A stretch of 41,051 nucleotides of DNA, taken from a virus (taxonomy: Duplodnaviria > Heunggongvirae > Uroviricota > Caudoviricetes). The DNA is taken from IMG/VR virus record IMGVR_UViG_2526164667_000035; one strand, given 5' to 3'. A program made the translations under genes and the position numbers. The notes under the pieces are model-generated. The model worked only from the letters and a program-made list of their open reading frames with translations, did no database searches and was not told where the DNA came from. Positions 23,833-40,582 of the stretch are shown here, piece by piece (within the stretch, counting starts at the first letter, position 1; each line of letters starts with the position of its first letter).

Positions 23833-24255
23833 TTATGCCGCCGAGCAGCTCCTACGCAAAGTCCTGATAGCCTGAGGCTTTGACTGAACCGACTGATCCA
23901 TTTCGAGCACCACATCCAGCATGGCTAAGCAACCGTCAATAAATCCCTCTGCCGCCTGAAGCCTCTTCAGAACGTGGGTGTGAGATACGCCGAGCTTCTC
24001 ACCCATCGCCCGCACGGGCATGGCCTGGACGTAATGCCACTCAAGGAGCGTGCACAGATACGGATCTTTTTTCTTCAGGCAGCTCATAGCGGAGTTGATG
24101 ATAAGACCGTCATTGTCACTGCATTTCAGCCTTCCAGACTGCGTCGCGGGTAGCAGATTCTTAAACCCAGCTGCAACAGGAGGAAAGTAGACGCTACCAC
24201 CTTCACTCGCTGCCCAGCCACCCCAGCGCTCTAAAACCTGTTGAATATTACGCAT
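23833..24255 (-). CDS. Late-gene antiterminator Q (QuuD-like family)
   Basis: 140 aa; N-terminus MRNIQQVLERWGGWAA...AAGFK and ...KRLQAAEGFIDG... resemble small Q proteins of lambdoid prophages by recollection; canonical position upstream of lysis genes. Confidence 0.65.
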   Translation of the reverse strand: MRNIQQVLERWGGWAASEGGSVYFPPVAAGFKNLLPATQSGRLKCSDNDGLIINSAMSCLKKKDPYLCTLLEWHYVQAMPVRAMGEKLGVSHTHVLKRLQAAEGFIDGCLAMLDVVLEMDQSVQSKPQAIRTLRRSCSAA

Positions 24256-24384: not shown

Positions 24385-24565
24385 CTGTACCAACCTGTAC
24401 CCACCTGTACCAGCTCTTTTCAAACCTTTTCCCCAAGCGACTTATATATATATATGGGGTTCTTAGTAATTAGGTTGGTACAGATGGTACAGTTGGTACT
24501 GGCCTTTAAATTCAATTAGTTAAAATGTACCAACCTCTATTTTGAGGTTGGTACAGGTTGGGACA
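24385..24565. repeat. Iteron array and AT-rich tract: putative replication origin
   Basis: Three tandem CTGTACC(A/C)(A/G)C repeats at 24385..24414; (TA)6 tract at 24443..24455; three inverted-orientation copies at 24473..24502; perfect 13-bp inverted pair ATGTACCAACCTC / GAGGTTGGTACAG at 24525..24556 over the primase stop codon. Confidence 0.55.
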
Positions 24566-26729
24566 CCGCCTCAAAAATTCGAGTCATTTTCCCCCCAATT
24601 CGCCTTTGGGCACGCTTATACCCGCAATTTTGCAAAACATTACTAATTCGCATTTCTTCGCGTTTTCCGATGCGGTCAGGATTTAGCCCAATCGCATCAC
24701 GCAAAACATCACTTGCGCGTAAAAATTCGCAATTTCGCGGAAGTTCATTAGTCATCAGGTCTGGCGTGTCGAGCCATTTCTCTACCGTTTCAAGCCAAGC
24801 ATCCTTGATGGTGTACTGTTCATGGACACTCGCTGCCAGTTGTTCAGCCTCACGGAACTGGATACCCCCCAGACGCTGAAACACCTCACGAGCCTCAGCC
24901 CAAAGTAAAAGGAGATCTCTTTTTATCGCTTTCACGTCGACTTTCGACACTTCCACGGGGAGCCAGCGACGGTTACCAGTCTTGTCCGCAAGGAATTCGT
25001 CCTCATTGGTGGTACCAACGAACACCAGGCGACGAGGAAACTGGGTGGCGAACTCCCGGTATTTCGGGATCCAGTTTTCGTGAGTACGCGTCACAAACGC
25101 TTTGATTGACTCCAGCTCTTTGGTATTAAGTCCGCGCAGTTCACCAATCTCTGCCACCAGCCGACCACGCATTTTTCGAGCGAGATCATCGTCTTTTTCG
25201 GCAAAAGAGATTTCAGTAAAAAACGCAGGATCAGGGCTCAGTGCCTCCACTCCGGAAGACTTACCGCAGCCCTGCGGACCAACGAGGATCGGCACCATAT
25301 CCGCTTTGATGCCTGGCTCCAGTACTCGCCCCGCCAACGCGGTCCACATGTACATAGACACCGCACGGGTATAAGGCGTGTCGGCGGTACCGAAGTGCGT
25401 ATGGTAGAAACATTCGATGCGCGGCACGCCATCCCACTCCAGTCCGTTCAGCCAGGTGATCGCTGAATCGAATGGTTGTTCATCGGCTGCAAGTAACACC
25501 ACATCGCGAATAAGTTCACGACCAACAGGTTTAAATCCCCGCTTTTCCATCGTGATGCGCAGGCGCGCATAATCCGCATCGGTGAAGGCCTGCCACTGGC
25601 CGGAGCCTGCCTGGGCGAACATGATTTCGTCACGGAACTGGTCAAAGCGAATATCGATGTCCACGAAGTCAGGACGCACAACGGCTTTTGCCGCGTTGCT
25701 GATGGTGGCCTCGATGCGGCCCCATTTGTCGCGCTCGAACGCCGGCAGCGGTAACGGCTCGGCCACTTCGGTGCTGGTCAGGTCTTCGAAATCGTCGTTG
25801 CGGATCCCGATGGCATTAAGGAAATCGCCGTCGTCGCGGTGCGCGCAGCTAGCGTGCAGGCACTTAAAATGCCCCTGCTCAAAGCCCGCGGTACCGCCCG
25901 GGAAGTAAACCGTGCTCGTCGGGTCGCCGCCGGTGCTGTGGCCGTCTTCGAACGGGCAACGGATATAGCGCTCGCCGTTCGCGCCGTCCAGCAGCGTCCA
26001 GCCATTGGCATCGAGATATTCCGCCGTATCATCCGTGGCGCCGGGCGTGAAGGTTGAACGGTCGCGCATCTTCGTGCTGCCCGCTTCGGTGGTGACCGAC
26101 ACAGGTAACTGTTCCGCCAGTCGCTGCCACAGCGTTTCAAGCTGCTCACCAGTAATAGCCGGAGGTTCATCCGGCAAACCGCCGTCCCATTCGATACGCG
26201 CGCCGCTGCTGTGCGTACCGCAGGCAACAAACTGCTGCCCGTTCGCCAGCAGCTCGATAATCCCCATATCGCCCGCCAGACGGTGGATGCGCTTACGGAA
26301 ATCGCCGTCAACGGCCAGCAGGTACAGGCATTTGTTACTGTTGGCGCGCCAGCGACGCGGCGGCAGCTCACCAAGCAGCTGCACCAGCGTTTTGCGAATA
26401 TCGGCCTGGATATCTTCGTCTTCGCTGTCGCAGTCCAGCGCCAGCCAGCCATGGCCTGTACGCACGCAGATGCCATAATCCGGTTCATTCGACCAGCGGG
26501 CAAAATCATGCTCAGTAACAACATGACCGGTCCATTGAGCAATACCGGTGACCTGACGGTCCCGGTTATAGCGACTTGGCGTCTTACCCAGCGCTTTCAG
26601 TTTACTGTCAGGGGATATAGTCGCACCGGGGTTACATACAACTGGGAGAAGATGAGCAGTTCGCCCCAATACCAGGTCGAAATGAAACCACTCATCAGGC
26701 GTAGCTCCCCATGGTTTGCTATCAGACAT
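24537..26729 (-). CDS. Replication protein: primase-polymerase-like N-terminal region fused to P-loop NTPase/helicase
   Basis: 730 aa; acidic DxD-type motif (LALDCDSEDED), Cys/His cluster (CLHASCAH), Walker A GPQGCGKSS in the C-terminal half; ends within the iteron array. Confidence 0.65.
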   Translation of the reverse strand: MSDSKPWGATPDEWFHFDLVLGRTAHLLPVVCNPGATISPDSKLKALGKTPSRYNRDRQVTGIAQWTGHVVTEHDFARWSNEPDYGICVRTGHGWLALDCDSEDEDIQADIRKTLVQLLGELPPRRWRANSNKCLYLLAVDGDFRKRIHRLAGDMGIIELLANGQQFVACGTHSSGARIEWDGGLPDEPPAITGEQLETLWQRLAEQLPVSVTTEAGSTKMRDRSTFTPGATDDTAEYLDANGWTLLDGANGERYIRCPFEDGHSTGGDPTSTVYFPGGTAGFEQGHFKCLHASCAHRDDGDFLNAIGIRNDDFEDLTSTEVAEPLPLPAFERDKWGRIEATISNAAKAVVRPDFVDIDIRFDQFRDEIMFAQAGSGQWQAFTDADYARLRITMEKRGFKPVGRELIRDVVLLAADEQPFDSAITWLNGLEWDGVPRIECFYHTHFGTADTPYTRAVSMYMWTALAGRVLEPGIKADMVPILVGPQGCGKSSGVEALSPDPAFFTEISFAEKDDDLARKMRGRLVAEIGELRGLNTKELESIKAFVTRTHENWIPKYREFATQFPRRLVFVGTTNEDEFLADKTGNRRWLPVEVSKVDVKAIKRDLLLLWAEAREVFQRLGGIQFREAEQLAASVHEQYTIKDAWLETVEKWLDTPDLMTNELPRNCEFLRASDVLRDAIGLNPDRIGKREEMRISNVLQNCGYKRAQRRIGGKMTRIFEAVSQPVPTSK

Positions 26730-26904
26730 GGGTTAAGCCTTTTTGTTTGACTACATTTTTTTGCTCCAAAATCTTTTCAAGTTGAAGAGCTCTTAGCTCT
26801 GGGATTTCCTCCCCCCATTGAGATACGGCTCCTTTGGAAACCTTCAATAGTCTCGCTAGTTTCGCTTTACTTCCTGCAAGCTCAATTGCTTCTGCTTTTT
26901 TCAT
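26722..26904 (-). CDS. Cro-like HTH regulator (YdaS-like)
   Basis: 60 aa from the ATG (MKKAEAIELAGSKAKLARLLKVSKGAVSQWG...); divergent from the repressor gene. Confidence 0.6.
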   Translation of the reverse strand: MKKAEAIELAGSKAKLARLLKVSKGAVSQWGEEIPELRALQLEKILEQKNVVKQKGLTHV

Positions 26905-26913
26905 ACCCGTCAC

Positions 26914-27017: not shown

Positions 27018-27710
27018 ATGATTAATGATCGTATTCGCGAGGCTCGTCGCAATGTCCACCTAACGCAGGATGCGCTTGCTAAACGTATTGGTCTAACTAA
27101 AGCCACGATTTCACAATGGGAATCCGGAAACACCACACCTAACGGGAAAAATCTTATAAATCTGGCCGAAGCATTGAACGTTTCTCCAGAGTGGCTACTT
27201 TCAGGCAAAACAAGCGATACCAAAGAAATACATTCTAATGCACAAGTTGAGGGGGGGTTTTCTGTATGGGACTCATCAACGCCATTAGAGGATGATGAAG
27301 TGGAAATACCGTTCTATCAGGAAATTGAACTATCTGCCGGTAATGGTACTTATGTTGATATAGATCGAATGGGATGTAAGTTAAGATTCGCCCGTTCAAC
27401 GTTGCGCAAAGCAGGTGTTGACGTAAATTGTGCGGCTTGTGTCAGCATCCACGGCAACAGCATGGAACCGGTATTACCAGATGGCGCTGTCGTCGGCATA
27501 GATACATCAAAAACAGGTGTAAAAGATGGTCAAATGTACGCTATAGACCAAGACGGATTACTTCGTGTCAAACTATTGTACCGTCTCCCAAGCGGACTCC
27601 GGATACGCTCTTTCAATAGGGATGAATACGCAGACGAAGAGTATTTTAATCAAGAGGCTAATAAAATCAGGATTATAGGCCAAGTATTTTGGTACTCCGT
27701 TCTGCTCTGA
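27018..27710 (+). CDS. CI-like prophage repressor (N-terminal HTH, C-terminal S24 LexA-like peptidase domain)
   Basis: N-terminal HTH (LTQDALAKRIGLTKATISQWESG) and C-terminal GNSMEP serine motif with downstream Lys; GAGGG SD 7 nt upstream. Confidence 0.85.
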   Translation: MINDRIREARRNVHLTQDALAKRIGLTKATISQWESGNTTPNGKNLINLAEALNVSPEWLLSGKTSDTKEIHSNAQVEGGFSVWDSSTPLEDDEVEIPFYQEIELSAGNGTYVDIDRMGCKLRFARSTLRKAGVDVNCAACVSIHGNSMEPVLPDGAVVGIDTSKTGVKDGQMYAIDQDGLLRVKLLYRLPSGLRIRSFNRDEYADEEYFNQEANKIRIIGQVFWYSVLL

Positions 27711-27734
27711 GCGTAAATTCACTCTATACCACAT

Positions 27735-27761
27735 GCCCGCTTCCTAAGCGGGCTTTTCTTT
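27735..27761 (+). terminator. Rho-independent terminator after the repressor gene
   Basis: GCCCGC-TTCCTAA-GCGGGC hairpin followed by TTTTCTTT. Confidence 0.7.
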
Positions 27762-27798
27762 ACCTATCCGAAAAAGTTCACTTTTCTTAACTACAACA

Positions 27799-27834
27799 CT
27801 TGACTTTGTGAGTTTAGAGGTCTTAACTATATGC
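27799..27834 (+). promoter_or_regulatory. Candidate early promoter (PL analogue)
   Basis: TTGACT, 17-nt spacer, TTAACT; the -10 is weak, so this is tentative. Confidence 0.3.
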
Positions 27835-28022
27835 GTGAAGTTAAGATATCTATACACAGATATTTAAACTACAAGTCGAACGGCGCGACTCTAAACCATG
27901 CGTCGGGACCGTGGCGGGACAGGATGTCGGCAATACGGGTCAGTAAGTTCCCTTTGGGGTGCGGCGAAGCACTGGGTCGAAGCCGCCGAACCACCAAAGT
28001 GAACTGAATGAGGAATCACAAG

Positions 28023-28217: not shown

Positions 28218-28259
28218 CAATCCTCTGAATCCTCCATGTAATTGCTGTGTGTAGTCTTT

Positions 28260-28287
28260 GCCCGCCTCAAGTGACGGGCTTTTTTAT
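28260..28287 (+). terminator. Rho-independent terminator
   Basis: GCCCG...CGGGC stem followed by TTTTTT. Confidence 0.5.
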
Positions 28288-28344
28288 GTCTGAAAGCGCA
28301 CTCGCAACAGCGTGCTCCCCGATATGAAAAAAGGAATACAACCG

Positions 28345-28494
28345 ATGAAACCTGAACACATCCATCGACTGACGGGGCGCGATGTTCTCCGTTATCGCCG
28401 TAAAAACTTCGATTTGATGACCGGTCTGGCCGTTGCCACTGCGCTCGGTCTGATCATCACTTTCATTCTCCTTGTAGCGAGGCCCACAGTATGA
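28345..28494 (+). CDS. Small single-pass membrane protein (49 aa)
   Basis: Internal ATG with AAAGGA SD; C-terminal hydrophobic helix (LAVATALGLIITFILLVA); stop overlaps the next start. Confidence 0.35.
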   Translation: MKPEHIHRLTGRDVLRYRRKNFDLMTGLAVATALGLIITFILLVARPTV

Positions 28495-29393
28495 GTTTAG
28501 AAACCAATCTAGAACTTAATAATCAACTTCTGGCACAACATAATGCGCTGCTTGAACGTCTTATCCGCACAATGGCATCAGGCATTGTTATGCATCCTGA
28601 CACGATTTCACGAGTGCAGGAATGTCGGGATACAGCAACTGAAACTGAAAATATGTCAGCGGCAATGACACTGGATGATCTGGAGTTCAGCGACGTTATC
28701 GCACTGGCTGGTTTCTACCCGGTAGCCACCCCTATCACAGAAGACATGCTGCAACGTGCTGTTGCCTACCGTGATGCTGAAGGCGATAAACGAGTAGTTC
28801 AGATTGATGCTCTCGACAGCGCATTGCAGGGCGTCAAACGAGCCAGGGCGCTGCTTAAACCTGCTCTCCTGGACCTGTCCCGTAACATCCTTAAGTTCTG
28901 GGACGACCTGCCAACCATCGGCGAGCGACGTGCTTTTGCCGAGCAGCTACTTGATGCACCTGCGGATGGGCGTGATGAAGTTAAGCCGAAAAAGGCCAGT
29001 AACAAGGATGGAGAACGCACGGGGCCGTTTTACGTCAAAAATGTATCCGGCACAGCAGCCAGTGAACTCCACACCTTACGCAAGTTGAACGAGATGCTGA
29101 AAAAAGGCCATATCGAGATCAACCGTGTTGAGTACCTTCAGCTGCAGGAAGAATTTGCACGCAGAGACGCAGCAAATTCCAGCCAGAATAATGACGCCAA
29201 AGATGACCATACAATTGATTTCGCGGCACTACGCAAACAAGCTGAAGGGTTGATCCTCCAGTTAGCAAAAGGGGGTTACCGGGCAGAAGCTATTGCAATT
29301 CTGGAAAAACAGGGAGCCAGGAAACTTGGTGAAGTAACGGATGAAAATCTCGCTGAAGTAATCACCCTGGCTGAAAAAGCACTGGAGGGTTAA
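28491..29393 (+). CDS. Hypothetical protein (300 aa)
   Basis: ATGA start overlap with the upstream gene; no motif recognised; mixed charged / helical composition. Confidence 0.5.
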
Positions 29394-29395
29394 TC

Positions 29396-30697
29396 ATGCC
29401 AGACGTTCATGCACAACTTTCTCCATCATCAGCGCATCGATGGATGCTCTGCCCAGGAAGTCTGGCGCTGGAGGCCACACAACCGGATAAAGAAACAACT
29501 TTTGCAATCGAGGGCACTGCAGCGCACGCGCTTGCTGAAAAAGTTCTACGAAACAGGCAAAGCCACCCGGAACACTACGCCGGATGCAATGTTTCTATGT
29601 TTCTCGGCTCATACCCCCTTCGCGAAAATCCTGATGATACATCTGGCCCACAGGTGGATGATGAAATGGTCGAAGCCGTTGGCCGGTATGTTGATACGGT
29701 CTGGACTCTTGCACAGAATAATGAACTATTGGTTGAACAACGTGTTGATTTCTCACATATAACGGGTGTGGAAGAATCTTTCGGAACTGCCGACGGCATA
29801 ATCATCGCTGGTAACGAATTACAAATCCACGACCTGAAATATGGCAAAGGCGTCCGCATTGATGCAGAACAAAATGAGCAACTACAACTGTATGCTCTGG
29901 GTGCGCTTGAACAATTCAGCATGCTGTATGACTTTGAAACTGTAAGATTATTTATTCACCAACCAAGGCTCAACCACGTTTCAGAATGGTCGTTAACCGT
30001 ACAGGAACTTCAGTCTTTCGGTGAACGGGCGCTGGAGGCCGCAACCAGTGCGATCCTTGTTCTCAATATTGCTGAATGCGAAGGCATTGAGACACTACCG
30101 CTGGAAAACTTCATACCTGGAGAAAAACAGTGCCGCTTCTGTAAAGCAAAAGCTATTTGCACTGCCCAGAAAATGCAGCATTTACAAACAGCGGCCAGCG
30201 ATTTTGAAGATCTGACAAAGCCTGTCAGCGAAATAATCACCAATGCCAGCGCACGTGTACCTCTGTTAACCATTGAGCAGCTTGCAGAGATCTATAGCCA
30301 GGCCAACTTTATTGAATCCTGGCTAAAGGCAGTACGGGACCGGGTTCACAATGAACTCAATGCCGGACATCCGGTACCGGGGTTTAAACTGGTAACAGGA
30401 AAACAAGGTAACCGGGCCTGGAGTGACGAAGAGGCAGCTCGCGCACTTCTGAAGGACCAGTTCAGGTACAAAACTGAAGAAGTATTCGACTTTAAACTTA
30501 TTAGTCCCACAAAAGCCGAAAAACTTATCAAAAAGGCCAGTCCGCGCCGTTGGTCAAAAGTCGAGGCACTGATAACACGAGCTGATGGTAAACCCACCGT
30601 CGTTCCCGAGTCAGACCCACGCCCCGCACTCAATATCAACCCTGTAAATGATTTCGACGACGTATCCGACGATACGCTAACCGCAGACCTTATCTGA
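29396..30697 (+). CDS. PD-(D/E)XK-type nuclease, DUF2800-like (Cas4/RecB-like with C-terminal Cys cluster)
   Basis: N-terminal [15 protein letters not shown] and Cys cluster [10 protein letters not shown], matching DUF2800 hallmarks as I recall them. Confidence 0.6.
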
Positions 30698-30712
30698 TTT
30701 AAGGAAATCCCC

Positions 30713-31261
30713 ATGAAACTGAAGCTGAACAATGTTCGTCTGGCCTTCCCGTCTCTGTTTGAAGCTAAAACTGTAAACGGCGAAGGCGATCCGCGTTTCT
30801 CCGCAGTATTTTTAATGTCTCCCAAACACCCACAACTGGAAGAAATCCGTAAAGCTATGAAGCAGGTAGCGAAGGAAAAATGGGGGGAGAAGTGGGAGTC
30901 CATTTATAACCAGCTGGAGAAAAAACTCAATCTGTGCCTGCATGATGGTGATGAAAAAGCAGAGTATGAAGGCTTTCCCGGCAATTTCTTCCTGAACGCT
31001 GCTAACAAAGCGCGCCCAGCTGTTCTTGATCGCGATCGTTCGCCACTAATTCAGGCTGATGGACGTCCCTATGCAGGGTGCTATGTAAACGCCGTTATCG
31101 ATATCTGGGCACAGGACAATAATTTCGGTAAACGCATTAATGCCTCACTCGGCGGAGTCCAGTTCCTGCGAGACGGCGATGCATTCGCTGGCGGCGGAGT
31201 GGCAAGCGCTGACGATTTCGACGATATCAGCGAAGGTGCTGATGCTGAAGCACTAATTTAA
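30713..31261 (+). CDS. DUF2815-like protein (phage single-strand DNA-binding-like)
   Basis: N-terminus MKLKLNNVRLAFPSLFE resembles DUF2815; sits between DUF2800 and the DNA polymerase as in known phage replication modules. Confidence 0.55.
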   Translation: MKLKLNNVRLAFPSLFEAKTVNGEGDPRFSAVFLMSPKHPQLEEIRKAMKQVAKEKWGEKWESIYNQLEKKLNLCLHDGDEKAEYEGFPGNFFLNAANKARPAVLDRDRSPLIQADGRPYAGCYVNAVIDIWAQDNNFGKRINASLGGVQFLRDGDAFAGGGVASADDFDDISEGADAEALI

Positions 31262-31312
31262 AAATATTCATCCCCCAGCTACGTGCTGGGGTATCTCATG
31301 AGGGAAAGGATA

Positions 31313-31954
31313 ATGTCACAGCCCGTATTAACTAATCACCTTAAAACTCAAATCATCAATAACGCACTTGAGAAAGCGGGTATCCCCAAACGTAAATCAG
31401 CACTACGAGCTGCTCGTGTTGAATGGGCCGAACGTGTTCGGCTTGCAGCTATCGGGGGCGTAGAGAAAGACGCTGAAATATTAAAAAATATAAAAAAGAT
31501 TGAATCCATGGTAACAAAAATCCCTGATTCATTAAAAACCAATAGTTCTTTAATTCGAAAAGATTGCTGCATATATCTCAATCTGGCTGGAGCCAGAGCA
31601 AACATTTATTTCAATGGCAACTACAGAGGTTATGAATCAGGAGCCCCCGAGCATATTAATAAAATAGCACCTGCAGAATTTACTCTACTTGGCGAAGATC
31701 CTCTGGTAACGGAGTTTTATAGCTTTGATGCTCTCTACACACAAATTAAAAGTGATGAAACCGAAATCATACAGAACGTCAGCGCGGCTCTAAATAAAGT
31801 TCGGACAGTAAAACGATTACTGGATGTATGGCCCGAAGCTAAAGAACTGCTTCCAACAGACGCACCGCCAGTCCCTTTAGCACCAGCAGTACATCGAGAG
31901 ACATTAAATGAAATGATAGGCCTTCCTACCAATACAGTGTCTGATACTCAATAA
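31313..31954 (+). CDS. Hypothetical protein, AT-rich (213 aa)
   Basis: Start at ATG with GAAAGGA SD; markedly lower GC than flanking genes; no motif recognised. Confidence 0.5.
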   Translation: MSQPVLTNHLKTQIINNALEKAGIPKRKSALRAARVEWAERVRLAAIGGVEKDAEILKNIKKIESMVTKIPDSLKTNSSLIRKDCCIYLNLAGARANIYFNGNYRGYESGAPEHINKIAPAEFTLLGEDPLVTEFYSFDALYTQIKSDETEIIQNVSAALNKVRTVKRLLDVWPEAKELLPTDAPPVPLAPAVHRETLNEMIGLPTNTVSDTQ

Positions 31955-32637
31955 CAAGGGGGATGCTTATTATATGATTTTGAACGTTTTACAATCTCGT
32001 TAAGAGGCGTGAAATCAAAATCTCTGAATAACACATCAGGATACTTCGCTCTTGCTTTATCCAGCAGGCCAGTTAAAGTATTTTTTGTGTTACCCAACAT
32101 TGTATTAACCGCCACTACATGTCTAATTTCTGGAGGTTTATCTATACCACCAGAAATTGCTTCATTAAGAACCGACGCCAGTGGGGTTTGTCCCTTACTT
32201 GTTGAATCCCACAGCGTCATTAACAGACGAGCTGCGTCTATAAATAGCTTTTTGTCAGCATTTGGCTTGACAGTAATACCGGAACTACCAGAGCCAGAAC
32301 CGGAACGTTCTATTGCTGCACTGGTATCCGATTTCATAGGATTAAATAACGGCAGCTCTGTACAACCGATACGCCGAATGAAATCCTTTGCAACATCTCT
32401 ACCACAGAAAAAAGCCCCTGTACAATTTTCATCAGAGCGTTTTTTAAATGAAAAACAATAGTACTGATCGGTTAACGGATAACCGGAATAACTGGTTTTA
32501 GTTTGTCCAGTAATAAGTTTCAGGTGTGCAACAGGCTGAATAATAAAATCCCGAACTATCGCATCTTTTATGTCGTTACCACGGTGACAATAATATTCAG
32601 GTAATCCATTAGGCTGTCTCTTATTACCCACAGTCAT
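31948..32637 (-). CDS. Hypothetical Cys-rich two-domain protein on the opposite strand, AT-rich (229 aa)
   Basis: Strong AAGGAGG SD; N-terminal region with Cys/His positions (CH...C...C...C...C), SGSGSGSSG linker, then a C-terminal domain; 7-bp convergent overlap with 31313..31954. Confidence 0.55.
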   Translation of the reverse strand: MTVGNKRQPNGLPEYYCHRGNDIKDAIVRDFIIQPVAHLKLITGQTKTSYSGYPLTDQYYCFSFKKRSDENCTGAFFCGRDVAKDFIRRIGCTELPLFNPMKSDTSAAIERSGSGSGSSGITVKPNADKKLFIDAARLLMTLWDSTSKGQTPLASVLNEAISGGIDKPPEIRHVVAVNTMLGNTKNTLTGLLDKARAKYPDVLFRDFDFTPLNEIVKRSKSYNKHPPCY

Positions 32638-32698
32638 TAGTTGCCTCCTTTAATTCATGATATCTAGCATTTAACCATATACCATATGAGGATATTTT

Positions 32699-34762
32699 AT
32701 GTCCAATATACTATGGGGCGACCTGGAAACCTATTGTGACATTCCGATCAACAACGGTACCCATGCGTATGCCGAAGGCGTTGAAGTGATGCTTTTCGCA
32801 TGGGCTATCAACGACGGGCCAGTAAATGTGTGGGATATCACTGCCGGTGGTGGTATTCCACACGGCTTATACGAAGCAATCGCAGACCCTGAAACCCTGC
32901 TTTATTTCCATAACTCTCACTTCGACCGCACCGTTCTGCGTTATGCAATGCCGCGACTGGCACCGCCAGTCGAACGTTGGCGCGACACGATGGTGCAGGC
33001 GCTGGCGCACGGTCTCCCGGGGTCTCTGGGGGAACTCTGCGAAATACTAGGCGTCCCGCAAGACAAAGCGAAGGACAAAGAAGGTAAAGCGCTGATCCAG
33101 CTGTTCTGTAAGCCACGCCCGAAAAACAGCAAACTGCGTCGGGCCACCAGTAAAACCCACCCGGAAGAATGGCGGCGCTTTGTTGATTACGCCGGACTGG
33201 ATATCGAGGCAATGCGCGAAGTCTATAAACGTCTGCCGAAGTGGAATTATCAGGGGACAGAGCTGGCGCTCTGGCATCGTGATCAGCAGATCAACGACCG
33301 GGGCGCCTGCATGGACATGCAACTCGCGCGCGCTGCGATCGAAGCGGTAGACCAGGAGCAAAAGCGCTTGGCAAAGCGTACACAGGAAATGACTGATGGC
33401 GAAGTGCAGGCAGCCACACAACGGGACGCGTTGATTAAGCACATCGTTGAATCCTACGGTGTGGAGCTACCAGACATGCAACGCAGTACCCTGGAACGTC
33501 GTATAGCCGACCCCGATTTACCATCTGCCGTGAAAGAACTGCTGGCTATCCGCCTGCAAGCCAGTACTACCAGCACCAGTAAATACAAGGCACTGATGAA
33601 AGGCGTAAGCCACGACGGGCGCTTACGCGGTACGCTACAGTTCTGCGGGGCGTCACGTACCGGTCGTTGGGCCGGACGGCTATTCCAGCCCCAGAACCTT
33701 CCCCGCCCTTCACTAAAACAGGAACAAATAGACGAAGGCATCGAAGCACTGAAAGCCGGATGTGCAGACCTGCTGTTTGACAATATCATGGAACTAACCA
33801 GTTCAGCGTTACGTGGCTGCATTATCGCGCCAACAGGCAAAAAACTGGTGGTAAGTGACTTGTCAAACATTGAAGGCCGTATGCTGGCATGGCTGGCGGG
33901 AGAAGAATGGAAACTGAATGCATTCAGAGAGTACGACGCCGGAACGGGTCCGGACTTATATAAACTGGCGTATGCAAAAGCTTTCGATATTGCACCAGAT
34001 GATGTTGATAAACACATGCGTCAGATCGGTAAAGTCATGGAACTCGGTCTGGGTTATGGAGGTGGTGTATCGGCTTTCATCACTTTTGCTCTGGTTTACG
34101 GTCTCGATCTCGACGAGCTGGCGAACGCCGCGCTGCCAAACATTCCCCGCGATGTTATCCGCGAGGCGAAAAGCTGGTACGACGAATCGGTTAAACGTAA
34201 GTCGACCTTTGGCCTGTCCGAGCGTGTATTCATCGCATGTGACTCGCTCAAGCGCCTGTGGCGCAGGGCGCACCCGGCGACCTGCGATTTCTGGTACGAG
34301 CTGGAGCGCACTGTCCGCACAGCAATCGCCACACCGCAAAAAACATTGTATTGCGGTTATCTTAAAATCCGCCGCGATGGCGCGTGGCTGCGCATACAGC
34401 TACCATCCGGACGCGCTGTATGCTACCCGTCTCCGGTTATCGAACAAGGGAATATCACCTACATGGGTGTTAACTCTTATTCGCGTAAATGGCAACGACT
34501 CAAAACCTACGGCGGAAAGCTGGTGGAGAACGTCACCCAGGCGGCCGCCCGCGACGTTCTGGCCGGAAACATGCCGCTTATCGAAGATGCCGGTTACAGC
34601 ATTGTGCTGACGGTACACGACGAGGTGATCACCGAATCACCTGACACAGAAGATTTCAACGATAAAGCGCTTTCCGCGCTTCTCTCCACTAACCCCGAAT
34701 GGGCGCCCGATATCCCACTGAACGCTGGCGGTTTTGAGGCGTACCACTACCGTAAGGATTAA
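32699..34762 (+). CDS. Family A DNA polymerase with N-terminal 3'-5' exonuclease domain
   Basis: 687 aa; exonuclease-type motifs ([15 protein letters not shown]) and polymerase motifs ([16 protein letters not shown]; VHDEV). Confidence 0.85.
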
Positions 34763-34767
34763 CTCCT

Positions 34768-34983
34768 ATGTCATTTAAATACCGGGATAATCCACTTTAT
34801 TACAGGGCTGCAAGGGAGGCTTTGCGACTTGAACAATCCGGCGAATATGACCGGGCAGCGAAGGTCTGGGCAAAAGCCAACCGCGAATCACATCACGAAC
34901 TGAATCAGGAATGGAGTGAACGCAGATCTGATTTTTGCCTGATGCAGAATATGCGTGAAAAGCGTAAGGCGGTCGAAGAATGA
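34768..34983 (+). CDS. Small hypothetical protein (possibly ANR-like small regulator)
   Basis: 71 aa; vague resemblance to small prophage regulators by memory only. Confidence 0.35.
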   Translation: MSFKYRDNPLYYRAAREALRLEQSGEYDRAAKVWAKANRESHHELNQEWSERRSDFCLMQNMREKRKAVEE

Positions 34984-35279
34984 TCGTTTACGTTGCCGGG
35001 CCGATGAGCGGTTACGAGCAATTTAACCGCCCGGCCTTTCATTCCGCAGCAAAGAGGCTAACGGACAAGGGATATGTTGTGCTTAACCCCGCAACTTTAC
35101 CCGATGGTTTGACACAGGCTCAGTACATGGACATCTGCCTCGCAATGCTTCGCTGTGCCGATACGATTTATATGCTCAAAGAGTGGGAGTACTCTGCCGG
35201 CGCACGTGCAGAAAACGCGTTGGCAGAGAAACTGGAATTGAATGTGCTTTTTGAAGAGTGGGATTCAGATGGCCTATGA
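34980..35279 (+). CDS. DUF4406-like protein (nucleoside 2-deoxyribosyltransferase-like fold)
   Basis: 99 aa; N-terminal MIVYVAGPMSG...VLNPA pattern typical of DUF4406 as I recall it. Confidence 0.5.
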   Translation: MIVYVAGPMSGYEQFNRPAFHSAAKRLTDKGYVVLNPATLPDGLTQAQYMDICLAMLRCADTIYMLKEWEYSAGARAENALAEKLELNVLFEEWDSDGL

Positions 35280-35562
35280 ACGTGAGAGCCTTATCGAAAA
35301 GCACCTCGTCGCTGAAGTGAAAAAGGCTGGCGGTGTGGCCTTTAAGTTCGTATCTCCCGGTCGCCGCTCGGTACCGGATCGCATTGTTCTGCTACCCGGC
35401 GGCCGTCTTGTTTTCGTTGAATGCAAAGCACCCGGCAAAGCACCACGCGCCGACCAGTTGCGCGAGCACGAGCGGCTGCGCGAGCTGGGCTTTACCGTGG
35501 TGGTGCTGGATAGCAAAAATCTGGAGGGGATATTGTGCGGGGAGCCTATTACAACGAAATAG
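35269..35562 (+). CDS. VRR-NUC domain nuclease
   Basis: 97 aa from the internal ATG; PDRIVLLPGGRLVFVECKAPGK motif; typically paired with an SNF2-like helicase in phage genomes. Confidence 0.6.
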   Translation: MAYERESLIEKHLVAEVKKAGGVAFKFVSPGRRSVPDRIVLLPGGRLVFVECKAPGKAPRADQLREHERLRELGFTVVVLDSKNLEGILCGEPITTK

Positions 35563-36548
35563 ACCCTAACGCAGCACAATGGCTGCGTAACCTTATTGCT
35601 GCGGGTCATATCGCCCCGGGTGAAGTTGATGAAAGGAGTATCGAAGATGTCGCACCAGACGACTTGCGCGGATTCACACAGTGCCATTTCTTCGCCGGGA
35701 TCGGCGTCTGGTCTTATGCTCTGCGTCTGGCCGGACGGCCGGATAACAAACCGGTCTGGACAGGAAGTTGCCCGTGCCAGCCTTTCAGCTCGGCTGGTAA
35801 AAGCGCTGGGTTTGATGACGAGCGGCACCTATGGCCAGCACTATTCCACCTCATCAGCGAGCGACGCCCTAAGCTGGTATTTGGCGAACAGGTTGCGGGA
35901 GTCAATGCCTGGTTCGATCTTGTACAAACTGACGTGGAAGCAGTGGACTACGCCTTTGGGCTTGTCCCGTTTCCGGCTGCGGGCGTCGGTGCCCCGCATA
36001 TCCGAGATAGAGCGTATTGGGTGGCCGACGCCAGCGGCGAGCGACCACAGCGGTGGCGAAAGCGCCTCAATAGCATTGAGGAAGATGTCTGGAGATCGTC
36101 GACCGTCCGGCAACACGCTACACAGCTCCCTGCGGGATTTTGCTCACCTGGCGGGGTGGTACACCCCAACCTGCAACACAAACCCACAGCCGGAGACAAA
36201 ACGCGGTCTAGAAACCTTAGCGGGGCTATCCAGATTAGCGGGATGGCCGACAGTGACGACGGTCGACAACAACCAAGTTCGTGGCGAGGGCCCAGCAGCC
36301 AATCATACCAAACGGGGAACGCCCCTCGGCGGCCCAATACGATTAACAGCTGCTGGGATGATGCTGACTGGCTCCTCTGCCGGGATGGTCGCTGGCGGCC
36401 AGTTGAATCCGGCACATTCCCGTTGGCTCATGGGATTACCTCCAGAGTGGGACGACTGCGCGCCTACGGCAACGCGATAGTCGCACCAGCTGCCGCAACA
36501 TTCATCCGCTCGTTTATGGAATGCGCAGGATACGACCTCATCTGTTGA
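35535..36548 (+). CDS. DNA (cytosine-5) methyltransferase
   Basis: Motif I FAGIGVWS (FxGxG), motif IV PCQPFS, ENV-like GEQV, RxR-type HIRDRAYWV; GTG start with GGAGGGG SD. Confidence 0.75.
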
Positions 36549-36550
36549 TA

Positions 36551-37480
36551 TTATGGGTTAGGTAATGCACGATTATTAAAATTATCAATAATTTGCAACG
36601 CCGCCGTTTGTCCGCCAGCCAATAGCCCTGCTTTACTCAGAAGGTATTTAGGGAATTTGGTTGGTAAATAAACCGCACGAAGCCAGTGCCTGAATACAGC
36701 TAAAGCATTATCAGGGTATGCATAGACCATTTGGGGATTACTTGCGGATTGGTTGAATTCTTCAGGGTAATAGTGCTGGCAGCGTTGTCTTGGGCCAATC
36801 GTCGCATCGTAGTTGGAAGAAGACCAGTAGCGAGCCCAGTGCTGGCCCACACTGATATCCGGTACAGTGTACTGGTTTACTGCTAATCCAGCATGGATGA
36901 GGTCTACCATTAAACCGGCAATTTCATTGAATACAATGAAATGTCCAGCAGGAACCGAGTTTGCCCCATGCATGATTGACACACGAGAGTGGTAATGACG
37001 CCAAGGGTCATCAGGTATGTAGCCAAGCGCTGTATAGATGTAACCACGCATACCCGCACGGGATAGCTCACGGAAAAACTGTAGCGCAGTAGGAGTTGCA
37101 GCACTTTGAGATACAAATGCGTAGAACTCCAGAATAGCCATACAGACTACTTCTGGGTACGCATAATGGACTGACCCATCTTTGTTGATTGGGATATAAA
37201 GAGTCGGCTCATTATATTGCTCACGCTGTAAATATGAGCTGATAAACTCCATACGCCCTCGAGCGAAAACTCCGTGGCGGAAGCTCTCTTCCCACTCTCG
37301 AGAAATATCCGCGATATTACTACGATGCACCCCGCAAATCCTGGCCAGCCCATTTTGCGTAAGGTAGGAGATCCCGTTCTGAAGAACCCCCATTTCTATT
37401 TCGTTAAAAACCCCCTCAGTACTAACACCTAAGTCCAGTATTTGTTGGGGTGCGGGTTGCTGACCACCAAATTCACTCAT
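36551..37480 (-). CDS. Hypothetical protein with putative N-terminal HTH, opposite strand to neighbours (309 aa)
   Basis: Segment ISYLTQNGLARICGVHRSNIADISREW looks like a helix-turn-helix; convergent with the methyltransferase and divergent from the helicase. Confidence 0.5.
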   Translation of the reverse strand: MSEFGGQQPAPQQILDLGVSTEGVFNEIEMGVLQNGISYLTQNGLARICGVHRSNIADISREWEESFRHGVFARGRMEFISSYLQREQYNEPTLYIPINKDGSVHYAYPEVVCMAILEFYAFVSQSAATPTALQFFRELSRAGMRGYIYTALGYIPDDPWRHYHSRVSIMHGANSVPAGHFIVFNEIAGLMVDLIHAGLAVNQYTVPDISVGQHWARYWSSSNYDATIGPRQRCQHYYPEEFNQSASNPQMVYAYPDNALAVFRHWLRAVYLPTKFPKYLLSKAGLLAGGQTAALQIIDNFNNRALPNP

Positions 37481-37590
37481 TTTATTGTTTATCCTTACAT
37501 TTAACCCTGTGGGTTACCTTCGCTGTGAATAGTAAAAATTGCCAGGCCAACTGGTGCGACCTCTAACTAGCAAAAATTTGCGAGATTATA

Positions 37591-38985
37591 ATGCCTCAAA
37601 ACTTTATCCCTCGCCCCTACCAAGATCTCATTATCAACCACGAAATCGACATCATGCGCTGCAACATCTGGGCAGGTATGGGAATGGGTAAAACCGTAGC
37701 GACACTCACCACGCTGGAAGATCTTTTCATGGCTGGAGCAGAAACACGCCCCGCGCTGGTCCTCGCGCCGCTACGCGTTGCAGCAAGCACCTGGCCTGAT
37801 GAAGCTGTTAAATGGGGGCATCTGCGTAATATTGAGGTGCAGCCGATTGTTGGTAACGCCAAAGCGCGCTCTGCAGCGCTGGCGAACAGCAACGCAAGCG
37901 TGTTCACCATCAACTACGATAACCTTGTCTGGCTGGTTGAGGAATTGGGAGAACGATGGCCGTTCGGTACTGTCATTCCAGATGAAAGCACCCGGCTAAA
38001 ATCCTTCCGGCTGCGAGGTGGTGGTAAGCGCGCGGCGGCGCTGGGCAAAGTGGCGCATAAGTATGTCCGGCGCTGGATAAATCTCACCGGTACGCCAGCA
38101 CCGAACGGCCTGGTAGATTTGTGGGGACAAGCGTGGTTTGTGGACCAGGGGCAACGTCTCGGACGCACTTACGGCGCGTTTACCTCACGCTGGTTCAACT
38201 CGATACAGTTTCCGGGGCAGAGCTGGACCAAACTGGAACCGTTTGCTCACTCACAGGGTGAAATACAGCGAGCGTTAGCCGATGTGACCCTATCGCTGAA
38301 TGCGGCCGACTGGTTCGATATCAAAGACCCCATCCATAACGTAATCCGCGTGGATATGCCGCCGAAGGCCCGTCAGCAGTATCGTGAAATGGAAAAGGAA
38401 ATGTTCCTCGAGCTGAATGGCGAAGGCATCGAAGCACCGAACGCCGCGGCAAAGACACTGAAGTGTCTGCAAATCGCCAGTGGCGCAGTATACACAGACG
38501 ACACCGGAAGTTGGTCAGAACTGCATGACACCAAACTGCAGGCGCTGGACAGCATACTGACCGAAGCAGCTGGCGCACCTGTGCTGGTTGCTTATCACTG
38601 GAAACACGATCTTGAACGCTTGCTTAAAGCATTCCCTCGCGGTCGTCACCTCGACCAAGATCCACAGACACTGCGCGACTGGAATTCCGGAAAGATTCCT
38701 GTTCTCTTTGCACAGCCAGCCAGCGCGGGCCACGGTCTGAACATGCAGGACGGCGGAAACATACTGGTATTTTTCTCACACTGGTGGGACCTGGAGCAGT
38801 ATCAGCAAATTATTGAACGTATCGGCCCCACCAGGCAGATACAGGCCGGACACAATCGTCCGGTATTTATTCACCACATTATTGCGGCCGACACTATGGA
38901 CGAAATGGTGATGGAGCGGCGCAACTCAAAACGAACAGTGCAGGACATCCTGCTCGATGCCATGAAAAAGAGAGGTATAGCATGA
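37591..38985 (+). CDS. SNF2/DEAD-like superfamily 2 helicase
   Basis: Walker A GMGKT, DExx-type box IPDESTRLK, C-terminal helicase domain. Confidence 0.7.
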   Translation: MPQNFIPRPYQDLIINHEIDIMRCNIWAGMGMGKTVATLTTLEDLFMAGAETRPALVLAPLRVAASTWPDEAVKWGHLRNIEVQPIVGNAKARSAALANSNASVFTINYDNLVWLVEELGERWPFGTVIPDESTRLKSFRLRGGGKRAAALGKVAHKYVRRWINLTGTPAPNGLVDLWGQAWFVDQGQRLGRTYGAFTSRWFNSIQFPGQSWTKLEPFAHSQGEIQRALADVTLSLNAADWFDIKDPIHNVIRVDMPPKARQQYREMEKEMFLELNGEGIEAPNAAAKTLKCLQIASGAVYTDDTGSWSELHDTKLQALDSILTEAAGAPVLVAYHWKHDLERLLKAFPRGRHLDQDPQTLRDWNSGKIPVLFAQPASAGHGLNMQDGGNILVFFSHWWDLEQYQQIIERIGPTRQIQAGHNRPVFIHHIIAADTMDEMVMERRNSKRTVQDILLDAMKKRGIA

Positions 38986-39182
38986 GCGAGAAACCCGACG
39001 ATTTACTCACCCCAGATGAAGTATGCCAAAAGTTAGGTATTACACAGAAAACGCTATGTGAGTGGAATATTAAGCATCGTCATCGGGCTATCCTGGCACC
39101 AATTCGTTTCAGTGCAAAAGTAGTTCGTTATGAGCGCCGAAATGTCGACGCTTTTATTCAAAAGTGTCGCAGCCAGTATTAA
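38982..39182 (+). CDS. Excisionase / AlpA-like HTH protein
   Basis: 66-aa ORF with HTH-like segment (LTPDEVCQKLGITQKTLCEW); ATGA overlap with the helicase stop; adjacent to the integrase. Confidence 0.5.
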   Translation: MSEKPDDLLTPDEVCQKLGITQKTLCEWNIKHRHRAILAPIRFSAKVVRYERRNVDAFIQKCRSQY

Positions 39183-40582
39183 CCTCGCCGCCGTAGCAAT
39201 GCAACCTGCGCAAGTATGCTCCGCTCGTGAGCCTCGAAAGCTTCGCGCTTTAACGCAATCTCTTCCTGTAAAATCTCATCAGAAAAGTCGTAATGTTCTG
39301 CCATCGGGTCATCTGACTTGCTGGAGTGGTGAAGGCAAAGGAGGCTGATTTCCCTTCGGTCTGATCGGGAATAGCCTCTTTCCTTCATTAAGGCAATAAC
39401 ATTGCTCTTAAAGAATTTACGGCACATCGTATTAAATGCACCGTCTTTCCCTTTAACAGTCCCATCATGTTTTATTCCTTTTACAGCCCCGTCCGGGCTG
39501 TATGTTTTCACCAGCTTATCCAGTGATCGTTTTGAAAATGGCTGCATTGGATCACGTGGCTGCAAAAATACATAATCCCTGTTGCACTCAGGAACTGAAT
39601 CACGCCAGGCTTTCTGCTCGTCGATAATCCGCCGGATCTCAGGCGTTATCGGCAGGCGGAAAGCCTTTTGTGTTTTCATAGCCCCTCGCATGCCGATAAC
39701 CCCTTCCGGATAAACAATTTCACCAGCCTCCTCGTGAACGTAGTCCCAGCGCAGGTTATGGACATTAATCGGACGAACGCCAGTGATGATCATGAAGCGA
39801 ACAGCATTCTTCTGGTGTACAGAGGTGCAGGCAGCAACATTGAGCCAGAGTCGGGCGATTGATTCAATATCGGTAAAAAGCCGTGTGGGGGTAGGTTTCT
39901 GTACGCGGGAGGAAACATAATCATCTGGCAGACTGGCGGCAACATTGCGGCCGTTGCAAAGAGTAGGTGCGCAGAACTTCCAGAACCGACGGAGCTCGGC
40001 AAACAACTCCAGGGCGTTATTGTTCGAGCGAGTGGCGATCCACTCGTCCAGCACTTCCACCAGCCGATTGTATGTTACGTCGCTGAACACCTCACGCTCG
40101 CCGAACGTTGCTTTAATCCGGTTGATACGCACCCCGTAGGTTGTGAAACTGTCCGGGCTCAGCTTCTGCCGGGCGACTTTGGCTTTGAGGTCATCCCGGT
40201 ACATTTCCAGCGCTGCATGTACGGACTCTGCCCGCAAGCCACAGTCAGCCATACCTAGCGCTTTTTCGCGCGCCAGCTGGATAGCGAGCTCCGGCCACTC
40301 GCCGAGCTTTTTACCCTTGAGGCCCATCTTTTTTGGAAACTCGGCGTAAAATGTAACCTTACCGGCTTTGCTGAAATCGATACGGAGATAGTTCTCTTTT
40401 TCGTATTTGGAACGGCGAGCCACGCCGGAAGCAGCGAGGATGATTTTGGCGGCAGCAACACAGATTTTCATGTGTGCGCTGGTATAGGGGGGTTTACAGG
40501 CGTCCCATTTTTCAGATGCGGCTAAAACATCGTCATTATTGGGGCTATCCGGATTATGTGTTACAGTGCGCGGCATTCTCAA
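39179..40582 (-). CDS. int: Tyrosine-type site-specific integrase
   Basis: C-terminal catalytic region with TGVRP (Arg box) and LCLHHSSKSDDPMAEHY, resembling the lambda Int LLGHKSDTMASQY segment with the catalytic Tyr; at the prophage edge beside a host gene. Confidence 0.7.
   Translation of the reverse strand: MRMPRTVTHNPDSPNNDDVLAASEKWDACKPPYTSAHMKICVAAAKIILAASGVARRSKYEKENYLRIDFSKAGKVTFYAEFPKKMGLKGKKLGEWPELAIQLAREKALGMADCGLRAESVHAALEMYRDDLKAKVARQKLSPDSFTTYGVRINRIKATFGEREVFSDVTYNRLVEVLDEWIATRSNNNALELFAELRRFWKFCAPTLCNGRNVAASLPDDYVSSRVQKPTPTRLFTDIESIARLWLNVAACTSVHQKNAVRFMIITGVRPINVHNLRWDYVHEEAGEIVYPEGVIGMRGAMKTQKAFRLPITPEIRRIIDEQKAWRDSVPECNRDYVFLQPRDPMQPFSKRSLDKLVKTYSPDGAVKGIKHDGTVKGKDGAFNTMCRKFFKSNVIALMKERGYSRSDRREISLLCLHHSSKSDDPMAEHYDFSDEILQEEIALKREAFEAHERSILAQVALLRRRG

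Follow-up and report, generated by a model that had tools for sequence, protein, structure and literature searches.

The window analyzed here, a stretch of 41,051 nucleotides (Caudoviricetes; IMG/VR record IMGVR_UViG_2526164667_000035), is an Escherichia coli prophage integrated beside yfhL. On its + strand, positions 29396 to 38985 encode a DUF2800 nuclease, a protein that binds single-stranded DNA (SSB), a family A DNA polymerase (PolA), a VRR-NUC nuclease, and an SNF2-family helicase; on its − strand lies the gene for a large primase-helicase, with a putative iteron origin directly 3′ of it. The first-pass annotation, made without database searches, had described the + strand arm as a replisome-like module present in addition to the primase/helicase arm and had considered the combination a notable mosaic. 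We put the probability that both arms instead constitute one conserved phage replication-recombination gene set, arranged on a lambda-like regulatory map, at roughly four in five. This reading is based on the domain identities of the proteins, the collinearity of their genes in distant phages, the accompanying primase-helicase, co-occurrence in phage genomes, the origin, the protein tails, characterized homologues, and the existence of active phages with the same core. The feature is, in other words, a widespread, previously described replication-recombination module on a standard lambdoid map, ordinary and already known, and its annotation exists in RefSeq.

The five-gene core and its primase-helicase partner

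The following features make up the gene set:

29396..30697, + strand, DUF2800 RecB/Cas4-like PD-(D/E)XK nuclease; four-Cys motif, acidic C-terminal tail (Pfam, PHROGs, conserved residues)
30713..31261, + strand, DUF2815/Gp2.5-like single-stranded DNA-binding, probably annealing, protein with an acidic C-terminal tail (Pfam, PHROGs, PDB)
32699..34762, + strand, family A DNA polymerase with a putative N-terminal DEDDy-type 3′-5′ exonuclease domain (Pfam, PHROGs, motifs, profiles)
35269..35562, + strand, VRR-NUC nuclease, Holliday-junction-resolvase-like (PDB 4QBO/4QBN, phrog_93, invariant residues)
37591..38985, + strand, SNF2-family helicase/translocase (Pfam, PHROGs, motifs)
24537..26729, − strand, primase-helicase/initiator with an AEP Prim-Pol domain, a Cys/His motif, a VapE-like (SF3-type) NTPase, and the C-terminal specificity tail GK-xxx-[VI][WF]
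24385..24566, no strand assigned, putative replication origin with nine iterons of ~10 bp (core GGTTGGTACAG) in two inverted sets around an AT-rich (TA)n stretch

Both ends of the interval coincide exactly with open reading frames (ORFs), 29396 being the start of the DUF2800 gene and 38985 the stop of the SNF2 gene, and profile searches confirmed the five domain calls of the first-pass annotation. The DUF2800 gene product matched Pfam PF10926 (E 1.2e-109) as well as PDDEXK_1; its nuclease residues D133/D146/K148, the RecB-like pair Q162/Y166, and C19 are invariant in nine homologues, and the remaining members of its four-Cys set (C19, C246, C249, and C255) are kept in 8/9. This family has been described as RecB-like (PMC3424549). 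The SSB matched PF10991 (Enc34_ssDNA-bd; E 2.4e-44), the solved Enc34 SSB (PDB 5ODJ; E 4e-16), and phrog_112 “Gp2.5-like” (E 2.4e-56), and DUF2815 has been classed as a Gp2.5-type single-strand annealing protein (PMC8093625). For the polymerase, the family A assignment stood and that of a proofreading domain emerged weaker. The protein matched phrog_17 (E 1e-125), Taq/Klenow by profile (E 6e-20), and, partially, Pfam DNA_pol_A (E 1.1e-13). Aligning it with six distant homologues showed motifs A (D387, E392), B (R441, K445, Y453), and C (H640 D641 E642) to be invariant and the exonuclease motifs Exo I (D8, E10), Exo II (F75-D76, with D/E in all homologues), and Exo III (Y164, D168) to be conserved. 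DpoZ-type polymerase biology (non-canonical bases) was also considered and discarded, as a PurZ-like or other base-synthesis gene was not recognized among the genes examined.

The VRR-NUC call, despite a Pfam score below threshold (E 0.031), was rescued by matches to solved structures (PDB 4QBO, E 4e-14; 4QBN, E 4e-10) with the catalytic D/E-x-K aligned; the protein also matched phrog_93 (E 1.6e-31), and its residues D46/E60/K62 (numbering of the 106-amino acid [aa] ORF) are invariant. The VRR-Nuc proteins of Streptococcus phage P9 and Salmonella phage SETP3, to which these structures belong, are dimers that cleave four-way (Holliday) junctions (PMC4103454). The SNF2 protein matched Pfam SNF2-rel_dom (E 7.4e-12) and phrog_62 (E 9e-157), with Walker A and DE motifs invariant. 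On the other arm, the predicted primase/helicase was likewise recovered: the protein of 730 aa has an N-terminal Prim-Pol domain (E 1.2e-10) and a VapE-like domain (Pfam, E 2.3e-60), resembles a solved VapE-like hexamer (PDB 7PDS; E 9e-34), and falls into phrog_1156 (primase) and phrog_256 (helicase). NCBIfam yielded no match for the DUF2800, SSB, VRR-NUC, or primase proteins.

Gene order was compared with that of eight distant phages, all of which have a homologous polymerase: Xylella Xfas53, Serratia Otaku, Escherichia HK578, Salmonella Chi, Staphylococcus phiSa2wa, Streptococcus P9, Hamiltonella APSE-1, and Yersinia YeP4. The order DUF2800-SSB-PolA-VRR-NUC-SNF2 is collinear in 8/8, at identities of 30-76%. 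A large primase-helicase was found in seven of them; the APSE-1 stretch examined did not include that gene, and an APSE-7 record contains a primase whose C-terminal half is 72% identical. As in the window, the primase gene is divergent from the polymerase operon in Xfas53, Otaku, HK578, Chi, and YeP4. In a collection of 50,697 phage records, PolA-type matches occurred in 1,651 and DUF2800 matches in 1,559, with PolA/DUF2800 counts of 450/442 for Salmonella, 259/255 for Escherichia, 130/130 for Streptococcus, 105/105 for Bacteroides, and 84/84 for Staphylococcus. The counts of VapE-type primases in Bacteroides (105), Staphylococcus (87), and Paenibacillus (24) are in line with the PolA counts there. 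The module has been described before: the APSE early module is common to Xfas53, BPP-1, BcepC6B, and YeP4 (PMC8579659), a “duf2800-gp2.5-polA module” occurs commonly in phages infecting Gram-positive as well as Gram-negative bacteria (PMC8093625), and another example in the literature is Phi1207.3, a temperate prophage of Streptococcus (PMC4260502). The idea of a polymerase arm added to the primase/helicase arm as a second system is not supported, as the core-bearing phages examined, apart from the APSE-1 stretch, also carry a primase-helicase, and a gene order collinear in eight distant phages, present in ~1,600 phage records, and published previously is not a notable mosaic. That the phage supplies a good part of its replication machinery itself is, as a general idea, supported. 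The main value of the analysis is a correction: polymerase-bearing temperate phages under lambda-like control are common and have long been described (APSE, Xfas53, and prophages of Staphylococcus and Streptococcus), and such a phage does not merit a flag as unusual.

YeP4 and APSE-1 (genes P53-P51-P50-P45-P44-P41, xis, and int) share with the window the succession of a P53-like gene, exonuclease, SSB, a variable segment, PolA, a variable segment, VRR-NUC, a variable segment, SNF2, xis, and int. YeP4 additionally has its repressor gene on the same strand, a divergent cro-like gene followed by the primase gene, and iterons 3′ of the latter. Identities to the window are 59-76% overall for YeP4 (primase, 73% over 98% of its length; PolA, 74%; SNF2, 74%; VRR-NUC, 76%) and 55-74% for APSE-1. 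Virion genes, slot cargo, iteron sequence, and the integration site (yfhL in the window) differ; furthermore, YeP4 and APSE are podoviruses (PMC8579659), whereas the close relatives of the window prophage are named vB_EcoM, that is, as myoviruses. Xfas53 has the same map (int-xis-helicase-nuclease-pol-[Ant]-SSB-exonuclease ... cI / ... primase-Q-lysis-terminase), with identities of 57% for PolA, 57% for SNF2, and 62% for SSB, and with inverted repeat sets around (TA)n 3′ of the primase gene. It differs in having a D5_N/Pox_D5 primase instead of VapE and P22-like head genes, and the P53-like gene is without a match. The temperate phages of Firmicutes (Triavirus phiSa2wa, P9, and Phi1207.3) have the five core genes, a VirE/VapE- or D5-type primase, cI/cro-type regulation, and their own PolA (PMC8093625; PMC4260502), but all on a single-strand rightward operon with the primase gene between those for PolA and VRR-NUC, and their large proteins are only 30-38% identical.

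On paper, the set also resembles the replication proteins of T7 (gp5, gp4, and gp2.5, together with gp6 and gp3): family A polymerase, primase and helicase in a single protein, OB-fold Gp2.5-like SSB with an acidic tail, exonuclease, and junction-cleaving nuclease. However, the window primase is an AEP PrimPol and its NTPase is of the VapE/DUF5906 type (SF3-like), whereas T7 gp4 combines a DnaG-type primase with a DnaB-like SF4 helicase; the window nucleases are of the PD-(D/E)XK type (RecB-like and VRR-NUC) and not FEN-like as gp6 or related to endonuclease I; and the window phage is temperate and apparently iteron-initiated. Because primase and helicase come from different superfamilies, the window set would be a functional analogue of T7 gp5/gp4/gp2.5 and not a member of the same family.

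The acidic tails may add a further link between the core proteins. The SSB ends in ...DDFDDISEGADAEALI, and exonuclease and SSB share the tail motif DFDD[VI]S...[DE]L[IV] (30650-30697 and 31214-31261), both in the window and in its relatives, even where the identity of the SSB body falls to 55-60%. In YeP4, exonuclease and SSB both terminate in AESLI, and an acidic W/F-D-[DE]n tail ends four proteins of phage Chi, namely, its exonuclease, SSB, primase, and SNF2 helicase. In T7, acidic tails on several partners are a known route of docking onto the polymerase. By this analogy, the shared tails suggest that their bearers might dock onto one common partner. The distance between the DUF2800 and SSB genes is also constant: in 70 relatives, the ends of the tblastn matches lie 17-19 bp apart.

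The core is intact and occurs in phages that are active. All core ORFs are uninterrupted and their catalytic residues conserved. The interval is 99.6% identical to E. coli EC20017429, and parts of it are present in 159 of 5,426 complete E. coli genomes (~3%), every copy being chromosomal; in most of these carriers, which include strains O103:H2 12009 and ETEC H10407, the identity of the region is 95-99%. The induced isolates vB_EcoM-606R2, -689R2, and -611R5 possess core genes that are 97.5% identical, with 55% of the interval covered.

Iterons and the initiator tail

The iterons noted by the first-pass annotation held up, and they mark a putative origin. With up to two mismatches, GGTTGGTACAG matched 15 times in the window, and nine of these matches lie inside 24385-24566; in shuffled versions of the whole window, the number of matches averaged 7.9 and never exceeded 14. 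Along the primase strand, two iterons are contained in the last primase codons, followed by an inverted copy that is palindromic across the stop codon, three direct copies, the TATATATATATA stretch, and three inverted copies, the last of which ends ~130 bp ahead of the Q gene. The (TA)n stretch is located at about 24437-24472. YeP4 and Xfas53 show a matching design 3′ of their primase genes.

Among 57 close relatives, at least eight iteron cores pair one-to-one with variants of the initiator motif GK-xxx-[VI][WF]: GGTGGTTCCAG with GKKCKVW, GGTTGGTACAG with GKMTRIF, GGTGGTTACAG with GKVQRVW, GGTGGTAACAG with GKLMKVW, GGTTGGGACAG with GKKMRIF, GGTTGTCTA with GKQQRVF, GGTGGTCTAG with GKQIRVW, and GGTGGATACAG with GKVLKVW. 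This comparison left aside the few residues for which the iterons themselves code. The remaining initiator sequence is 88-99% identical across the relatives, and the (TA)n spacer is kept. EC20017429, which in the polymerase arm is 99.6% identical, has another iteron type (GGTGGTTCCAG) than the window. Such covariation is, at the level of sequence, a signature of cognate initiator-origin pairs, and the initiator tail together with the iterons looks like a cassette for origin specificity that has been swapped between relatives. The pairs look like naturally orthogonal specificity variants.

The origins of SaPI/PICI islands (Pri-Rep-ori), of P4 (alpha/ori), and of lambdoid phages (O/iterons) behave as systems of iterons and cognate initiators. 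The region described here resembles them in its short repeats, the two sets with an AT-rich middle, and the adjoining or overlapping initiator gene, and also in that the specificity region of the initiator and the iterons change together between relatives. It differs in that the apparent determinant of specificity is a very short C-terminal motif, and in that the first iterons are located within the last initiator codons.

Proposed mode of replication and competing explanations

On the lambda map, O and P are situated on the cro side, and red (exo/bet/gam) is situated on the cI side, which ends with xis/int. Accordingly placed, the cro-side arm of the window would supply, at the position of O/P, an initiator plus its own origin directly 3′, and the cI-side arm, at the position of red and ending with xis/int, would supply exonuclease, SSB/annealing protein, PolA, junction nuclease, and SNF2 translocase. 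Once the repressor is lost, the C-terminal domain of the initiator would bind the iterons and melt the AT-rich spacer; the initiator would then load itself as a hexameric helicase, with priming by its AEP domain. The phage PolA would extend the primers, and the SSB would coat the lagging strand. Finally, exonuclease, SSB/annealing protein, SNF2, and VRR-NUC may sustain recombination-dependent replication and debranch concatemers before packaging. The analysis shows the identities of the genes, their catalytic motifs, their synteny and co-occurrence, and the covariation of iterons with the initiator; each of the biochemical steps above, as well as the degree of host independence, is inferred. 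By analogy to T7, replication that is largely, although incompletely, host-independent appears plausible, and the prophage family would represent a compact replicon that is probably largely self-sufficient.

Several observations weigh against this reading. Among the genes examined, none was recognized as coding for a clamp or clamp loader, a ligase, a topoisomerase, or an enzyme dedicated to primer removal, and host factors would therefore still be needed. The proofreading domain is the weakest of the domain calls, as it is based on motifs and weak profile matches (Pfam exo1, E 0.0099; PHROG “exonuclease subunit”, 3.8e-7); when the N-terminal profile of PolA was compared with PDB, it matched DEDDy exonucleases exclusively (NrnC, RNase D, and Pol gamma), but marginally (E 0.015-0.5). 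The primase-helicase belongs to one of three unrelated families, depending on the phage: the window, phiSa2wa, and Chi have PrimPol+VapE, Xfas53 and P9 have D5_N/Pox_D5, and Otaku and HK578 have AAA_25. Judged by these families, the initiator can be exchanged, and to that extent the notion of a separate initiator is partly true. A scan of 26700-39300 for sigma-70 consensus sites did not call a promoter for the + arm, whose promoter is thus only presumed, and a strong + strand terminator-like hairpin can be read at ~28261-28288, in the stretch that separates the putative OL region from the operon. Lastly, the literature search found no experiments on this phage, and that for a paper on vB_EcoM-606R2 was empty.

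The + arm could mainly be a recombination and repair module that replaces lambda Red, in which exonuclease, annealing SSB, junction nuclease, and branch translocase would carry out recombination, PolA would fill gaps or extend invading 3′ ends, and host Pol III would perform the bulk of synthesis once the origin has been opened by the phage primase-helicase. The position of the arm, downstream of cI where lambda has exo/bet/gam and ending with xis/int, would suit such a role, as would a RecB-like DUF2800 nuclease (PMC3424549), a DUF2815 protein of the Gp2.5-type annealing class (PMC8093625; phrog_112), phage VRR-Nuc proteins that cleave Holliday junctions (PMC4103454), and the fact that a processivity factor was not recognized among the genes examined. 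We nevertheless regard it as rather unlikely, because the polymerase is conserved as strictly as the nuclease across ~1,600 phages, including the virulent Chi, Jersey-like phages, and Dhillonvirus, because both its proofreading and its polymerase motifs are intact, and because PolA, primase-helicase, and an acidic-tailed Gp2.5-like SSB together mirror the T7 replisome. A function in recombination and one as a replisome are mutually compatible. Far less probable is a recent mosaic, with a second, self-sufficient polymerase module gained separately by a lambdoid phage that had a primase/helicase-iteron replicon. Initiator families do differ among phages that share the five-gene core, and the visible exchange of the iteron/tail cassette between close relatives demonstrates that modular exchange of initiators does occur; synteny, however, already contradicts the proposal. 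YeP4 has both arms in the same layout and at similar identities (73% for the primase and 74-76% for PolA, SNF2, and VRR-NUC), Xfas53 has this layout with another type of primase, and APSE has the same order in the + arm, with the APSE-7 primase matching in its C-terminal half. All core-bearing phages examined have a primase-helicase, except APSE-1 with its limited stretch, and an initiator or origin belonging to the polymerase arm itself could not be found. That the genes are a decaying, non-functional remnant in a cryptic prophage is hardly credible: many E. coli prophages are defective, a point that is not specific to this one, whereas here the core ORFs and catalytic residues are preserved, identity is 95-99% in most of the 159 genomes, the induced isolates carry the same core, and head, tail, lysis, and terminase genes, all on the − strand arm, are present.

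Within the reading of both arms as one replication-recombination gene set, a bolder version is conceivable, although we consider the odds to be against it as a whole: a self-contained T7-like replisome with two unreported features of wiring, namely, a shared tail code and the respecification of the origin by cassette swap, with the three cargo slots of the + arm as defense hotspots, and with a protein of the UCP028583 family in one of them as the product of an undescribed defense gene. If this were true, exonuclease and SSB (in Chi, also primase and SNF2) would dock on one common partner, and a cassette consisting of the last ~15 initiator codons plus the iterons would have produced at least eight mutually orthogonal replicons in near-identical enterobacterial prophages. 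Specificity cassettes, shared tails, and cargo slots are modest leads.

Lambdoid regulation and exchangeable cargo

The regulatory and flanking genes of both arms are as follows:

23833..24255, − strand, Q-like late antiterminator, downstream of the origin in the cro/primase arm (phrog_79 “anti-termination protein Q-like”, E 1.5e-38)
26722..26913, − strand, Cro-like HTH regulator, first gene of the primase arm (phrog_409, E 8e-17; PGAP annotates the homologue as HTH regulator)
26938-26953 and 26985-27000, no strand assigned, two putative operators GTTAAG-N4-CTAAAC between cro and cI
27018..27710, + strand, cI-type repressor with HTH and S24 self-cleaving domains (HTH_3, E 2.4e-18; Peptidase_S24, E 2.8e-17; phrog_4, E 2e-58)
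27735..27855, + strand, candidate PL/OL-like control region of the polymerase arm (hairpin, TTGACT, two putative operators)
28491..29393, + strand, 300-aa protein with an APSE P53-like C-terminus, directly upstream of the DUF2800 gene (phrog_6784, E 1.5e-179)
38982..39182, + strand, excisionase-like HTH_17 protein, last gene of the + arm (Pfam HTH_17, E 1.3e-5; phrog_66 and phrog_1553, excisionase)
39179..40582, − strand, tyrosine integrase at the prophage end next to yfhL (Pfam Phage_integrase; PGAP; yfhL as neighbor)

From right to left, the − strand contains the cro-like gene, the primase-helicase gene, the Q-like antiterminator gene, lysis genes, terminase, and virion genes, and the + strand contains cI, a short variable stretch, and the polymerase operon, which ends with the excisionase-like gene and is followed by the integrase gene on the opposite strand. 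The lambdoid regulation proposed in the first-pass annotation was borne out: cI (with its S24 domain) and the cro-like gene are divergent, a second set of putative operators is present, Q precedes the lysis and structural genes, and int/xis close the operon. The 606R2 homologue of the Q-like gene is annotated as antitermination protein Q. Downstream of cI, a terminator-like hairpin (27735-27753) is followed by the TTGACT hexamer and by two further putative operators (27812-27827, inverted; 27840-27855, one mismatch). Altogether, the 16-bp motif GTTAAG-N4-CTAAAC occurs in four copies in the window, all in the immunity region, vs. 0.08 expected. This layout fits OR/OL-type control of both arms, with the operator function of the motif being predicted from its sequence and position. 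In the scan of 26700-39300, promoter-like sites were no more frequent than in shuffled sequence, and 17 terminator-like sites were found vs. a shuffled mean of 12.2. An N-like antitermination gene was not recognized; the small ORFs at 28008-28494 are without functional annotation, and nut sites were not searched for. The segment between cI and the operon (27711-28490) is a fourth variable slot, in which EC20017429 has a 570-bp − strand gene instead.

Gene presence and slot contents were recorded in 80 close relatives. The P53-like gene precedes the DUF2800 gene in 70 of them; the last ~58 aa of its product match APSE P53 and the equivalently placed YeP4 protein; toward the N-terminus, divergence is rapid, and identity spans 47-100% among relatives. 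Besides the core, the interval 29396-38985 contains six more genes, which the first-pass annotation had passed over:

31313..31954, + strand, slot 1, Nmad5-family protein, predicted to be nucleotide-modification associated (Pfam PF18757, E 2.4e-54; 18/80 relatives; gene start as in PGAP)
31948..32637, − strand, slot 1, 229-aa orphan, UCP028583 (PF27729, assigned via homologues)
34768..34983, + strand, ANR-family small regulator of 71 aa, directly after the polymerase gene (NCBIfam NF033650, E 9.4e-20)
34980..35279, + strand, slot 2, DUF4406, nucleoside 2-deoxyribosyltransferase-like (Pfam, E 8.6e-34; phrog_355; 12/80 relatives)
35535..36548, + strand, slot 3, C5 cytosine DNA methyltransferase, Dcm (Pfam, E 6.8e-13; phrog_363, E 3e-89; 9/80 relatives)
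36551..37480, − strand, slot 3, BstA abortive-infection protein (PADLOC BstA, E 3.3e-110; phrog_6287, E 7.6e-98; 9/80 relatives)

The cargo of the three intergenic slots of the + arm (31262-32698, 34763-35268, and 35563-37590 in the window) is exchangeable and does not belong to the replisome; outside these slots, the spacing of the core genes is fixed. Among the relatives, the gaps range from 88 to 2559 bp for SSB-PolA, from 218 to 1825 bp for PolA-VRR-NUC, and from −22 to 2031 bp for VRR-NUC-SNF2, and the cargo includes TIR-like PDC-S35 (22 loci), PDC-S42, SIR2/ThsA-like PDC-S25, BstA, and several membrane proteins, with many of these genes on the opposite strand. These slots of the early operon exchange defense and DNA-modification genes and are a convenient hunting ground for new defense genes. 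The ANR-family (AraC negative regulator) gene follows that for PolA in 66/80 relatives and, given this conservation, seems to belong to the phage core instead of being a virulence add-on.

Dhillonvirus, which has the same polymerase module, can escape Tmn defense when nmad5 carries a point mutation, but not when the gene is deleted (PMC11846954). Nmad5, DUF4406, and Dcm were also considered as one unit for DNA hypermodification, a proposal that was rejected as they are located in different slots and occur independently (in 18, 12, and 9 of the 80 relatives). The orphan protein had no match in Pfam (local copy), PHROGs, PADLOC, NCBIfam, or the phage database, and its AlphaFold model (predicted local distance difference test score of 78) had no match among known folds. 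Genes for its homologues adjoin that of a 1056-aa SIR2_2 protein (in Dickeya) or sit within a type I restriction-modification locus with a HigB-like toxin, and the UCP028583 gene is a candidate defense gene.

A cluster of slot ORFs of 285 aa, rich in Arg/Ser, was discarded as a shadow ORF. Another ORF of 294 aa (35596-36480, + strand, in another frame) overlaps nearly the whole methyltransferase gene and is probably a shadow ORF as well, since phrog_363 supports the methyltransferase frame. The bstA gene lies inside the replication operon on the opposite strand, between the genes for the methyltransferase and the SNF2 helicase. In published BstA systems, a cognate anti-BstA DNA element spans the start codon (PMC8585504). 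The start of bstA in the window is flanked by AACCCACA (~35 nucleotides upstream of the ATG) and AACCCGCA (~25 nucleotides into the gene), which together mark a candidate element.

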